64,000 bases of DNA, taken from NCBI GenBank assembly GCA_037441525.1, contig JBBISA010000003.1:25833-89832 (forward strand). The letters run 5' to 3'. Under the pieces are notes generated by a model. The model was not told the DNA's origin and did no database searches. It was given only the letters and a program-made list of their open reading frames with translations. Both the position numbers and the translations under genes were made by a program. Shown here one piece after another: positions 28,952 to 32,675 of the stretch. Numbering within the stretch: the first letter of the stretch is position 1; every line of letters begins with the position of its first letter. This DNA comes from Bacteroidota bacterium. GTDB taxonomy: Bacteria > Bacteroidota > Bacteroidia > Bacteroidales > UBA7960.

Positions 28952-30331
28952 TTACTTAGCCCGTTCGAGCCTTATGGTAAAATGCCGCATTATGGGGGCT
29001 TCTGAAACAATTCTGAATCCACGGGTAATGCTTGCTCTCCGCTCCCAGATGTTGGCAAGACCGATGGCAATATAATCCATGTGGTTGTTGGTATACACAC
29101 GGCGAGGGATGGCCAGTCGCAATAGTTCCAAAACAGGGAAACGGTTTTCCCGTGTTACAGGGTTGCGATCGGCCATAAGGGTACCAATCTCTACACCACG
29201 CACTCCACATTCTATATAAAGCTCCACCGCGAGAGTCTGGGCCTGATACTCCTCTTTGGGTACATTGGAAAGAAATTTTTTGGCATCAACAAATACCGCA
29301 TGACCTCCGGTAGGTTGCTGAATGGGTATGCCAAACCCAGCCAGTTTCTTGCCCAGATATTCCACCTGGCCTATGCGGGCTTCAAGGTATGCAAATTCAG
29401 TTCCCTCCATCAACCCCTGGGCAAGGGCGCCAAGGTCGCGGCCTGCAAGCCCGCCATAGGTAAGGAACCCTTCGTACATGATATTAAAAACACTTGCCTT
29501 ATCGAACAATGATTTATCCCTTATGATAATAAAACCGCCAATATTTACGATAGCATCCTTCTTGGAACTCATGGTGGCCGCATCAACATAAGAAAACATT
29601 TCCTTCACAATTTCACGGATGCTATTGTTTTCGTAGCGTTTTTCGCGGGTTTTAATAAAATAGGCATTTTCGGCAAATCGTGCAGCATCAAATACAGGCA
29701 AAATCCCATACCTGCGGCACAGGGTTGATACCTCGCGGATGTTTTCCATTGATACCGGCTGCCCCCCGCTGGTATTGCAGGTAATGGTAATAATGCACAT
29801 AGGTATCTTTTCTCTTGGATACTTTTTGAAAACATCTTCAAGTTTCTGAAGGTCAATATTGCCTTTAAAGGGATGATATTCATCAGTATGGCAGGCTTCA
29901 TCAATAGTGCAATCAATGGCACGGGCATTCCGAAATTCAATGTGTCCTTTGGTGGTATCGAAATGGGAGTTTCCCGGAACTATATCACCACTCTTTATCA
30001 GGGCCGAAAACAATACATTTTCGGCCGCCCTGCCCTGATGGGTAGGCAGAAACCAGGGCATATCAAATAGTTCGTTAATGGTATTCTTTAATTTATAGTA
30101 ACTCGAAGAGCCGGCATAACTTTCGTCGCCCAGCATTATTTCTGACCATTGGTACTGGCTCATGGCGCCGGTGCCGGAGTCAGTCAGCAAATCGATAAAC
30201 ACCTGCTCACTTTTCAGGTTAAAAAGGTTGAAACCGGCTTGTGCCATCCAGTGTTCCCTCTCTTCGCAACTACTGCGGTAAAGAGGTTCAACAACTTTCA
30301 TTTTCCAGGGTTCGGCATAAGGTAATTCCAT
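28952..30331 (-). CDS. tnaA: Tryptophanase
   Basis: DLLTDSGT, THQGRAAE, MSSKKD (PLP Lys), RLAIPRRVYT; C-terminal RHFT (His as in tryptophanase, not the FF of tyrosine phenol-lyase). Confidence 0.9.
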   Translation of the reverse strand: MELPYAEPWKMKVVEPLYRSSCEEREHWMAQAGFNLFNLKSEQVFIDLLTDSGTGAMSQYQWSEIMLGDESYAGSSSYYKLKNTINELFDMPWFLPTHQGRAAENVLFSALIKSGDIVPGNSHFDTTKGHIEFRNARAIDCTIDEACHTDEYHPFKGNIDLQKLEDVFKKYPREKIPMCIITITCNTSGGQPVSMENIREVSTLCRRYGILPVFDAARFAENAYFIKTREKRYENNSIREIVKEMFSYVDAATMSSKKDAIVNIGGFIIIRDKSLFDKASVFNIMYEGFLTYGGLAGRDLGALAQGLMEGTEFAYLEARIGQVEYLGKKLAGFGIPIQQPTGGHAVFVDAKKFLSNVPKEEYQAQTLAVELYIECGVRGVEIGTLMADRNPVTRENRFPVLELLRLAIPRRVYTNNHMDYIAIGLANIWERRASITRGFRIVSEAPIMRHFTIRLERAK

Positions 30332-30415
30332 AGCAATTCAATTTTATTTTGATAATGAATAAAAACAGAAAAATGACCGGAAAAGAAAAAAACCCGGTCC
30401 GAATGAATTGCTATG
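30329..30415 (-). promoter_or_regulatory. tnaA 5' leader structure: 12-bp helix sequestering the tnaA start codon, enclosing a terminator-like hairpin
   Basis: Plus 30329-30340 CATAGCAATTCA is the exact reverse complement of 30404-30415 TGAATTGCTATG; inner GACCGG/CCGGTC stem (30375-80/30394-99) is followed by ATTTTTCTGTTTTT on -. Confidence 0.7.
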
Positions 30416-30488
30416 CCCGATAAGTGTCGCGCCGCTTAATATTAAGCCAAAGTAAATTGTTGTTATTGGTTAAATATTTGCAAAGCAT
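30411..30488 (-). CDS. Putative Trp-sensing leader peptide of tnaA, MLCKYLTNNNNLLWLNIKRRDTYRA
   Basis: Manual translation: 25 aa, single Trp14 in WLNI, ends 80 nt before tnaA; consensus -7 TACATTTG upstream (plus 30513-30520). Confidence 0.65.
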   Translation of the reverse strand: MLCKYLTNNNNLLWLNIKRRDTYRA

Positions 30489-30671
30489 AGATTATAAGGA
30501 GATTAACCAGTACAAATGTATAAAAATTCCCATTTTGATTATAGCAGCAATTTTGAATTTTTAGTCAGGAATTGAATTTATGGACTTAAAATTTTGCCAA
30601 TAAATCAAAATGAAGCTTGTAAAAAAAACAATTATAGCTAATTTTAGCGCTATAAACAAAAACACACCTGA

Positions 30672-30740
30672 ATGAACATTTACAGCCACACTTGTTGTTG
30701 TTGCAATACAAAGCCTCCGGGCAATGTAAAGGCTGTATAA
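30672..30740 (+). CDS. Cys-rich attenuator leader peptide of cysE-cysK, MNIYSHTCCCCNTKPPGNVKAV
   Basis: Manual translation: ATG 30672, TGT TGT TGT TGC at 30693-30704, TAA 30738-40; directly upstream of a terminator and cysE. Confidence 0.8.
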   Translation: MNIYSHTCCCCNTKPPGNVKAV

Positions 30741-30772
30741 TATTATCTGAAAATTCATAACAGAAAATATCG

Positions 30773-30804
30773 AACCTTTCATTGCTCTTATGAAAGGTTT
30801 TTTT
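30773..30804 (+). terminator. Attenuator terminator upstream of cysE
   Basis: Perfect 10-bp stem AACCTTTCAT (30773-82) / ATGAAAGGTT (30790-99) followed by TTTTT; the alternative partner GCAATGTAAAGG (30721-32) lies in the leader ORF. Confidence 0.85.
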
Positions 30805-30863: not shown

Positions 30864-31697
30864 ATGGAAAACCTGAGAACATTTGCCGAAAAACTTCTGC
30901 ACGACCATAAATCAGATGTTTGCTATATGCCTTCGCGAAGAGATAGCAGCCAGTTTGTGAACGATATGCTTGAGTTGCTTTTTCCTCTTGATATTCCCTG
31001 CTCAACCGATGAATATCTTTTGCGATTTATGAATTCAGAACACCAACTGCGCAAGATGCTCAACAGCTTGAAAATACTCCTGAAAGAAGAACCAACCAAA
31101 ATTGTGAACCACTTCTTCCCTGCACTCCCGGGCATTTATGAAAGTCTCAGGCATGATGCCGAATCGATTTATAAGTTCGACCCTGCAGCAGCAAGCATTC
31201 AGGAAGTAGTGCATGCTTATCCCGGTTTTTTTGCCATTTCGGTTTATCGGATTTCTCACCAAATGGCAAAACAAAATGTTCCGGTTTTGCCCCGTTTGTT
31301 TTCCGAATATGCCCACAGCCGAACCGGTATCGATATAAACCCGGGAGCCATTATCGGACAAAACTTTTTCATTGACCATGGCACCGGGGTGGTAATTGGA
31401 GAAACATCTGCAATTGGCGATAATGTGAAAATATACCAAGGTGTAACACTTGGAGCAATAACGGTTGAAAAAACACTTGCGGCCACCAAGCGGCACCCAA
31501 CCATTGAAGATAATGTGATTATTTATGCCGGGAGCACGGTACTTGGCGGAAAAACAGTTGTTGGGCACGATTCAATCATCGGGGGCAATGTGTGGCTTAC
31601 TGAAAGCGTACCCCCGTTTTCGGTGGTTTATCATAAAAGTGAAGTAAAAATCAGGTCGGGGAAGAATCATTTCGAACCCATCAATTTCGTAATTTAA
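30864..31697 (+). CDS. cysE: Serine O-acetyltransferase
   Basis: DPAA..EVVHAYPG, TGIDINPGA, FIDHGTGVVIGET, IYQGVTLG, KRHPTIED hexapeptide repeats. Confidence 0.93.
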   Translation: MENLRTFAEKLLHDHKSDVCYMPSRRDSSQFVNDMLELLFPLDIPCSTDEYLLRFMNSEHQLRKMLNSLKILLKEEPTKIVNHFFPALPGIYESLRHDAESIYKFDPAAASIQEVVHAYPGFFAISVYRISHQMAKQNVPVLPRLFSEYAHSRTGIDINPGAIIGQNFFIDHGTGVVIGETSAIGDNVKIYQGVTLGAITVEKTLAATKRHPTIEDNVIIYAGSTVLGGKTVVGHDSIIGGNVWLTESVPPFSVVYHKSEVKIRSGKNHFEPINFVI

Positions 31698-31760: not shown

Positions 31761-32675
31761 ATGAAAGCTAATACCATTTTAGAACTGATTGGCAACACGC
31801 CACATCTGCGAATTAATAAACTCTACCCTGCCGATTATGAGGTTTGGATGAAACTTGAAAGAAGCAACCCCGGTGCCAGTATCAAAGACCGCATTGCCCT
31901 TTCGATGATTGAAGATGCTGAACAAAGTGGCGAACTAAAGCCGGGCGGCACCATCATTGAACCAACATCGGGAAATACAGGAATAGGGCTGGCCATTGTG
32001 GCAGCTGTTAAAGGCTACAAGGTAATATTGGTGATGCCCGAAAGCATGTCGCTTGAAAGGCGCAGGATAATGAAGGTTTTGGGAGCAGAATTTGTGCTTA
32101 CTCCCCGCGAAAAGGGAATGAAAGGCGCTATTGCCGAGGCAACTGCCTTGGTTGAATCCACTCCCGGTTCATGGATGCCACGTCAGTTCGACAATCCTGC
32201 CAATCCGAAGGTGCACCGCGAAAAAACTTCCCTTGAAATCATCCAGGATTTCCCCGATGGGATTGATTACCTCATAACAGGTGTTGGAACCGGAGGCCAT
32301 ATTACCGGCGTGGCTGAGGTATTGAAGGAGAAGTTTCCCAACCTGAAGGTTTTTGCTGTTGAACCCGCCCTTTCACCAGTAATCAGTGGTGGTGACCCGG
32401 GCCCCCATCCCATTCAGGGAATAGGAGCAGGATTTATTCCGCAAATACTTAATAAATCACTCCTCGATGGAGTAATTACCGTAAGTAAGGAAGAAGCCTT
32501 TGAATTTGCCCGAAATTCTGCCCTTAAGGAGGGAGTATTTATCGGTATTTCCTCAGGCGCATCGCTTGCCGCGGTGAGCAAAAAGCTTCCCGAAATACCC
32601 AAAGGGTCTCGGATTCTTACCTTCTGCTACGATACCGGAGAGCGATATCTTTCAGTTGAAGGTCTGTTTGAATAA
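31761..32675 (+). CDS. cysK: Cysteine synthase A (O-acetylserine sulfhydrylase)
   Basis: [11 protein letters not shown] (PLP Lys), [34 protein letters not shown]. Confidence 0.96.

Follow-up and report, generated by a model that had tools for sequence, protein, structure and literature searches.

A putative Cys-tRNA-sensing leader-peptide attenuator upstream of cysE-cysK in a Bacteroidota genome

Results

A Cys-codon leader and an intrinsic terminator precede cysE-cysK

The window analyzed here is a stretch of 64,000 nucleotides of contig JBBISA010000003.1 (GenBank assembly GCA_037441525.1), part of the metagenome-assembled genome (MAG), of 4.2 Mb and 42% G+C, of an uncultured member of the Bacteroidales (Bacteroidota) from a subsurface metagenome. 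On its plus strand lie cysE and cysK, the genes for the two dedicated cysteine-synthesis enzymes, and upstream of them a short open reading frame (sORF) with four tandem Cys codons, followed by an intrinsic terminator. We propose that this leader is a functional transcription attenuator of cysE-cysK, and probably also of the downstream SDR gene, that senses Cys-tRNA through translation of the leader peptide; judging from sequence comparison and modelled folding, we put the probability of this reading at about 85%. The sequence elements, their conservation and covariation across the genus and the dependence of folding on the position of the ribosome were all computed here. The features of the locus are as follows.

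30639-30646, plus strand: possible Bacteroidota-type -7 promoter element, TAATTTTA, 33 nt 5′ of the sORF ATG
30672-30740, plus strand: leader-peptide sORF, MNIYSHTCCCCNTKPPGNVKAV, 22 codons plus stop (ATG at 30672, TAA at 30738-30740)
30681-30687, plus strand: TACAGCC, 5′ strand of the outer protector helix, which pairs with GGCTGTA at 30731-30737
30693-30704, plus strand: four tandem Cys codons, TGT TGT TGT TGC, the putative sensor and region 1, of which GUUGC (30700-30704) pairs with GCAAU (30721-30725)
30721-30732, plus strand: region 2, the predicted antiterminator 5′ strand GCAATG(T)AAAGG, in full GCAATGTAAAGG, inside the sORF
30773-30804, plus strand: regions 3 and 4, intrinsic terminator with a perfect 10-bp stem, a 7-nt loop and a U7 tract
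30864-31697, plus strand: cysE-type serine O-acetyltransferase, 277 aa, the first regulated gene in the model
31761-32675, plus strand: cysK, cysteine synthase A, 304 aa
32724-33476, plus strand: SDR-family oxidoreductase, 250 aa, 48 nt 3′ of cysK, a possible third gene of the operon

An attenuator at this position had been suggested by a first-pass annotation, made by a model from the letters alone, and all the coordinates that it gave, for the 22-aa sORF, the terminator and the three complementarities, proved exact. The sORF reads ATG AAC ATT TAC AGC CAC ACT TGT TGT TGT TGC AAT ACA AAG CCT CCG GGC AAT GTA AAG GCT GTA TAA. The terminator is formed by the 5′ stem AACCTTTCAT (30773-30782), the loop TGCTCTT and the 3′ stem ATGAAAGGTT (30790-30799), with T residues through 30804, and is separated by 59 nt from the cysE ATG (30864); it is detected by a pattern scan, and a shuffled intergenic region yields 0.2 such sites. 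Region 2 begins 16 nt past the last Cys codon, and 5 nt separate its end from the stop codon. Its partner, CCTTTCATTGC (30775-30785), consists of the terminator 5′ arm and loop, and this strand is common to both helices, so that antiterminator and terminator are mutually exclusive, as had been claimed. The antiterminator duplex has an energy of -17.4 kcal/mol, as compared to -7.3 ± 2.3 kcal/mol for shuffled strands (z = -4.3). The annotation had also likened the pairing of TACAGCC with GGCTGTA to a 1:2 protector helix. This helix is indeed present in minimum-energy folds without a ribosome, and TACAGCC would be covered by a ribosome that stalls at the first Cys codons, but the main conserved region 1 is provided by the Cys codons themselves (see below).

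The downstream genes were identified by their profile matches: the cysE product scores 153.9 bits against NF041874 (cut-off 150) and carries a Hexapep domain, with 159 bits against TIGR01172, under the cut-off of 210.65, and the cysK product scores 408 bits against TIGR01139 (cut-off 351). No convincing terminator-like site was found in the gap between cysK and the SDR gene, which is possibly co-transcribed with cysE-cysK.

Leaders of this kind are rare in the genome. Among 53,493 sORFs of 8-60 aa with an ATG start, 1,722 contain CC, 97 contain CCC (0.18%) and about 10 contain CCCC. The other CCCC sORFs checked lie within long ORFs on either strand, except for one 8-aa case (C39) with no overlapping long ORF listed; the only CCCC sORF with a strong terminator is the cysE leader. 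A scan of the genome for attenuators, defined as an intergenic sORF followed by a strong hairpin with a T run and then by a gene within 300 nt, returned 126 candidates, and among those with amino-acid runs the cysE leader is the only Cys one. A wider Cys regulon in this genome was rejected, as the scan gave no second Cys-run leader.

Folding of the leader depends on the position of the ribosome

Constrained folds were computed for the nascent RNA to 30789, before the terminator 3′ arm exists, and for the full-length leader, with the ribosome represented by masked positions. In the nascent RNA, the antiterminator (30720-30732 with 30775-30786; -16.2 to -18.9 kcal/mol) has the lowest energy when a ribosome occupies the Cys codons, whereas with no ribosome the protector helices are formed instead; with the ribosome at the stop codon, the antiterminator is unable to form. 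In these models, the folds thus reproduce the distinction that the first-pass annotation had drawn between a stalled and a finishing ribosome.

The mechanism that we propose is the following. Transcription would start shortly 5′ of 30672 and the 22-codon leader would be translated. When cysteine is plentiful, the ribosome would pass the four Cys codons, reach the stop codon at 30738-30740 and cover the antiterminator strand (30721-30732); after its release, the Cys codons (GUUGC, 30700-30704) and TACAGCC (30681-30687) would re-pair with the same strand. Region 3 would then be free for region 4, the 30773-30799 hairpin would form together with its U tract, and the polymerase would terminate 59 nt before cysE. 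When Cys-tRNA is scarce, the ribosome would stall at 30693-30704 and mask region 1, with its footprint ending short of 30721, so that GCAAUG(U)AAAGG could pair with CCUUUCAUUGC (30775-30785) as soon as the latter has emerged; with the antiterminator formed, the terminator would be blocked and the polymerase would read into cysE-cysK. The promoter, translation of the sORF, stalling and the response to cysteine in vivo are the parts of this scheme that we infer. The stretch 5′ of the sORF ATG is A-rich; the Bacteroidota are poor in Shine-Dalgarno sequences and initiate translation without them, and an A-rich leader before the ATG is expected. The leader peptide of the window also contains a PPG motif (30714-30722), directly 5′ of the antiterminator strand. 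Such motifs slow ribosomes in the absence of EF-P; the PPG is probably incidental and is given no role here, because it is not conserved in the other leaders of the genus.

The Cys run and both helices are conserved within the genus

To describe the genus we used one CysE orthologue from each of 18 other species (72-78% identity); a contig end truncates one of their upstream regions, in which the terminator is still visible, and 17 readable ones are left. A lack of Cys runs upstream of homologous cysE genes had been named beforehand as a possible refutation of the attenuator; an sORF with a Cys run (CC, CCC, CCCC or CCCCCC) was found in 16 of the 17 regions, 15 with an ATG start and one with a TTG start. 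The peptides, of 22-33 aa, are essentially unrelated outside the Cys run (for example MLHLNKYCCCCCCKDTFHAMAELCFD, MKKHTSVCCCYLLTFVAMRRFTIVV and MNYIFPGSSLCNCCCCFKMNAVHTMDG), and the invariant columns of the nucleotide alignment fall only in the Cys codons and the terminator. The distance to the terminator is 61-73 nt from the last Cys codon and 23-33 nt from the stop codon (in the 14 of 16 leaders whose terminators were correctly placed by script), and in most leaders a gap of 11-17 nt follows the last Cys codon before the antiterminator strand, whose 3′ end is 0-14 nt from the stop.

Covarying stems, which the first-pass annotation had suggested looking for, are present: both helices keep their pairing across the genus, with six compensatory cells each. 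For the terminator, 93.8% of cells are paired over the 16 leaders, against 31-58% when the strands are slid; for the antiterminator the figures are 75%, with register shifts left uncorrected, and 33-54%. The antiterminator covariation score was matched by one in 500 shuffles, and a compensatory change from A-U to C-G is seen in two species with an altered terminator arm. Moreover, the duplex between the strand 11-17 nt past the Cys run and the terminator 5′ arm beats shuffles in 15 of 16 leaders, seven of them at p <= 0.003. An unguided RNAalifold analysis recovered the terminator and one further helix, between GUUGY of the last Cys codons and GCAAU, which makes up the 5′ half of the antiterminator strand (93.8% of cells paired, against 21-69% when slid). 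In 13 of the 16 leaders, the nascent RNA without a ribosome ties up the antiterminator strand with a partner that a ribosome halted at the Cys codons would cover.

By comparison of the aligned leaders, then, the Cys codons appear to be the main conserved region 1, that is, the anti-antiterminator strand, in this genus. Since the sensor codons UGUUGY double as that strand, GCAAUG and the terminator arm CAUUGC would be forced to stay complementary to, or to mimic, the Cys codons, and competition of CAUUGC with UGUUGC for the same partner would explain why this arm is almost invariant. It would be an unusually economical design.

Cognate leaders precede other amino acid biosynthetic genes

The genome scan also placed units of the same design, each with the cognate amino acid, before hisG, ilvD and the gene for prephenate dehydrogenase:

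contig C48:466-640: His leader, MKRYIHHHHHYRLVPTE, with a terminator of -16.7 kcal/mol, 56 nt before hisG
contig C28, 12168-12312 in reverse-complement coordinates, reverse strand: Ile/Thr-rich leader, MSYIITTIYIYIILFVRQKGSENGV, with its terminator, directly before ilvD
contig C2:22555-22890: tandem Phe/Tyr-rich leaders, MNRNFFYTYFFYFYFTGKNGAVV and MNTSGLYFGFYFYYFYPLQGRDR, each with its own terminator, before the prephenate dehydrogenase gene

In the His leader, TTCCCACGG, which lies within the sORF, has its complement in the terminator arm CCGTGGGAA. Ribosome-mediated attenuation is evidently a general strategy of this organism, and the existence of these leaders makes the Cys reading much more credible. 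The serial double attenuator before the prephenate dehydrogenase gene is, in itself, unusual.

These leaders bear on a different explanation, according to which the sORF encodes a functional Cys-rich micropeptide, metal-binding or the precursor of a ribosomally synthesized and post-translationally modified peptide, with the hairpin as its own terminator. Small Cys-rich peptides do exist, and a terminator-like hairpin does lie downstream of the sORF. However, the sequence is unconserved outside the Cys run and its length varies from 22 to 33 aa, the conserved nucleotides are RNA pairing partners and not a peptide motif, no modification or export genes lie nearby, and in this genome hisG, ilvD and tyrA have His-, Ile/Thr- and Phe/Tyr-rich sORFs at the corresponding position. 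We give this explanation hardly any credence.

Cys-run leaders occur beyond the genus

The element was not found upstream of CysE orthologues (about 52% identity) from other families of the same order. In a wider set of 80 named cysE loci (CysE at 46-61% identity, the best named matches including Bacteroidales MAGs at 58%), Cys-run sORFs lie upstream on the same strand at 10 loci (12 in a scan restricted to ATG starts), against none downstream and two on the opposite strand. They include leaders from the Chitinophagales (MKFNRTYFQACCCCCPLPRKGISATCGYEAVS) and from the Saprospiraceae (MQLKSVNAFTCCCCCPAPKERRFSNCRRRTDG), and most of the Cys leaders outside the genus are followed by strong terminators (-14 to -30 kcal/mol), with a near-copy of the 3′ arm, GGAAAGGG, inside the sORF. 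Proteiniphilum and Petrimonas have sORFs of the form M..CCCCC-stop without a clear U-tract terminator, and two Calditrichota MAGs have a longer ORF that ends in CCCCCPVCK or CCCCPVCK. Even inside clades, the occurrence of Cys leaders is patchy. The terminator 5′ arms that follow Cys leaders in the Chitinophagales and Saprospiraceae (loci L047/L111, L062/L120, L076/L119, L110, L113 and L118) start with CCCTTTC(C), like the genus consensus ACCCTTTCATTGC; the likeness could reflect common descent of the attenuators or convergence of G/C-based stems before U tracts.

On balance, but with little more than even confidence, we take the element to be one of a widespread, uncurated family of terminator-based, tRNA-Cys-sensing attenuators. 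This family would be chiefly responsible for regulating cysteine synthesis across the Bacteroidota and neighbouring phyla (Chitinophagales, Saprospiraceae and Bacteroidales, possibly Calditrichota and others), for which a cysteine regulator is not known.

Leader-sized RNA in metatranscriptomes

The Saprospiraceae leader at locus L120 was found in four metatranscriptomes from two studies, in each as one exact-match piece of 134-153 nt. The pieces start 20-25 nt before the sORF ATG and span the sORF, none covers cysE, and adapter remnants mark two of them as complete inserts. They are compatible with a leader transcript that is short and abundant, within two limits: contigs show presence, not absence, and the pieces end just short of the terminator hairpin. 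Premature termination would yield a leader RNA of about 150 nt, which may also build up in the cell as a stable small RNA.

Such an RNA could also be expected if the element worked independently of translation and the Cys ORF were incidental, the hairpin being a constitutive terminator or one controlled by a protein or ligand in the manner of a riboswitch, or the whole a stand-alone small RNA of about 150 nt. The leader of the window is strongly structured (whole-leader fold of -39.1 kcal/mol; z = -4.08 relative to shuffles), leader-sized RNA is the only form in which the distant element of the same design appears in metatranscriptomes, and attenuator RNAs with a role in trans, such as rnTrpL, have been described (PMC6614838). 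Yet 16 of 17 loci retain a start, Cys run and stop in frame while other codons change, chance alone would very rarely produce Cys runs (CCC in 0.18% of sORFs), the spacing fits ribosome footprints, and no Rfam family matches; a role in trans could add to attenuation, not replace it. We regard a translation-independent element as very unlikely. The micropeptide and the riboswitch readings were both rejected, each on the grounds stated with it.

Points that weigh against an attenuator

Several observations weigh against the proposal of a leader-peptide attenuator. No RNA run containing the window was found, the only matching runs being of DNA, from a subsurface metagenome. In an alkali-sediment metatranscriptome with a close relative of L004, pieces of the leader, cysE and cysK have similar contig depth; this shows only that the leader is transcribed and speaks neither for nor against attenuation. 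The terminator stem has only three G-C pairs (-11.7 kcal/mol). In the full-length leader with the Cys codons masked, the terminator is slightly preferred over the antiterminator (-17.6 versus -16.7 kcal/mol); as the two are nearly isoenergetic, the switch would have to be kinetic, as in trp, and the model needs kinetic trapping of a pre-formed antiterminator, which is standard for attenuators. An equilibrium switch was rejected, since masking of the Cys codons leaves the antiterminator short of the minimum energy in the full-length leader and only the co-transcriptional, truncated folds reach it. The isoenergetic structures are a limitation of the argument and no contradiction.

The promoter is a weak lead. 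A match to TAnnTTT[GA] lies 26-43 nt 5′ of the sORF start in eight of the 16 genus leaders, and chance matches are likely because the region is AT-rich, so that placement of the promoter at TAATTTTA is tentative. A sigma-70 promoter scan of the region gave no match, as expected for the Bacteroidota. Two loci of the genus, L007 and L008, have cysE-cysK with neither a Cys leader nor a terminator upstream, and are cases of natural loss or replacement. At a third, L005, the run is only CC and the antiterminator is not convincing. Finally, the counts of conservation are not independent events, because the members of the genus are related.

The divergent tryptophanase gene

Upstream of the leader, on the minus strand, lies a gene for tryptophanase (tnaA, 28952-30331). 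The arrangement of divergent tnaA and leader-cysE-cysK(-SDR) is kept across the genus: cysK follows cysE in every locus that reaches past cysE, the SDR gene lies downstream in at least 11 loci, and the divergent tryptophanase/cysE-cysK pair is found in at least 15 species (loci L002-L019). At L008 tnaA still adjoins, with a 440-nt spacer. Lyases of the tryptophanase family are able to degrade cysteine as well, and for this reason the pairing may link cysteine synthesis with its degradation. On the minus strand of the same intergenic region lies a second sORF, of 25 codons (MLCKYLTNNNNLLWLNIKRRDTYRA, 30411-30488), followed by a GACCGG/CCGGTC hairpin and a T run to about 30375, 42 nt before the tryptophanase start; this unit was picked up independently by the genome-wide scan for an sORF with a terminator.

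Discussion

The leader described here resembles the enterobacterial attenuators (trpL, hisL, leuL, thrL, pheL and ilvL) in its parts: a short translated leader with a run of codons for the end product in or next to region 1, exclusive helices 1:2, 2:3 and 3:4, an intrinsic terminator before the first structural gene, and a stop codon placed such that the terminating ribosome covers region 2. It differs from them in that cysteine would be the amino acid sensed, in its Bacteroidota host and in the Cys codons being the conserved half of region 1, and neither its sequence nor Rfam relates it to them. Cysteine was reportedly not covered when Vitreschak and colleagues compared attenuators in 2004.

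Cysteine genes are the target of other regulators in the Bacillota and Proteobacteria, namely the Cys T-box, CymR and CysB. CymR and CysB are DNA-binding proteins. The T-box also reads the charging of tRNA-Cys, with termination and antitermination as its output, but its RNA binds uncharged tRNA directly and without translation, and no T-box was detected here. A search with Rfam 15 over the leader found no family at the gathering threshold, and none matched in seven related loci; hits to PyrR (30 bits, gathering threshold 54) and to the trpB motif (26.7 bits, gathering threshold 59) were dismissed as chance, far under threshold.

Cys codons have been implicated in regulation in the Actinomycetota. 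Seliverstov et al. [quoted passage not shown] The polycysteine, leaderless sORFs of mycobacteria (Ms5788A type) likewise place consecutive Cys codons before genes of cysteine and sulfur metabolism, and cysteine is sensed, as proposed or shown, by ribosomes that stall on these codons. In that system the mRNAs are leaderless and the Cys tract sequesters by pairing the Shine-Dalgarno region of the gene downstream, giving translational control with no terminator (Canestrari et al., bioRxiv 10.1101/834739). In the window, by contrast, the Cys codons pair with the antiterminator strand rather than with the start region of cysE, some 160 nt distant, and a canonical terminator is present.

The mycobacterial example nevertheless suggests an alternative in which the sORF senses cysteine but acts through another output, such as Rho-dependent polarity, coupled translation, a blocked cysE start or altered mRNA stability, the hairpin being mainly a pause site or a stabiliser. 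The mycobacterial Cys upstream ORFs (uORFs) that have been studied experimentally act on translation (10.1101/834739), and the actinobacterial Cys leaders are without terminators (PMC1262725); the Proteiniphilum and Petrimonas sORFs that lack a clear U-tract terminator and the near-equal energies of terminator and antiterminator point in the same direction. Against these stand the hairpin itself, with a perfect stem and a 7-U tract, which at 59 nt before cysE leaves the start untouched, and the complementarity of the antiterminator and its spacing from the Cys codons, both kept, with compensatory changes. We therefore favour transcription attenuation and consider a different output unlikely.

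Within the Bacteroidota, leader-peptide attenuators have been predicted in Flavobacterium psychrophilum, for ilvE (with an Ile-rich leader) and others (PMC9723704). Attenuation by the same design principle had thus already been proposed for the phylum; a Cys leader was not found in the main text or supplements of that study (searched for cysE, cysK and cysteine). The mycobacterial paper of 2020 (Canestrari et al., 10.1101/834739) states that uORF-mediated cysteine attenuation was undescribed, and a paper of 2026 still treats it as such (PMC13236596). Full-text searches of papers open without a subscription found no cysteine attenuator in the Bacteroidota, and no description of a terminator-based cysteine attenuator in any organism was found in the searchable literature. 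This agrees with the statement of the first-pass annotation that it knew of none described in this phylum, and of Cys leaders mainly from Actinomycetota. The logic is that of the textbook, and it is the combination with cysteine, with a terminator-based output and with this phylum that is, as far as checked, apparently undescribed.

As the mechanism is a textbook one, the surprise to a specialist would be moderate. The signature, a Cys-run sORF followed by a terminator, could serve annotation, being absent from Rfam and the annotation sources checked. The regulation of cysteine synthesis in the Bacteroidota is essentially undescribed, and CysB, CymR and the T-box are not the answer here. If the proposal is true, it would provide a concrete and testable regulator for cysE-cysK in a large part of the phylum, and would extend classical attenuation to cysteine.

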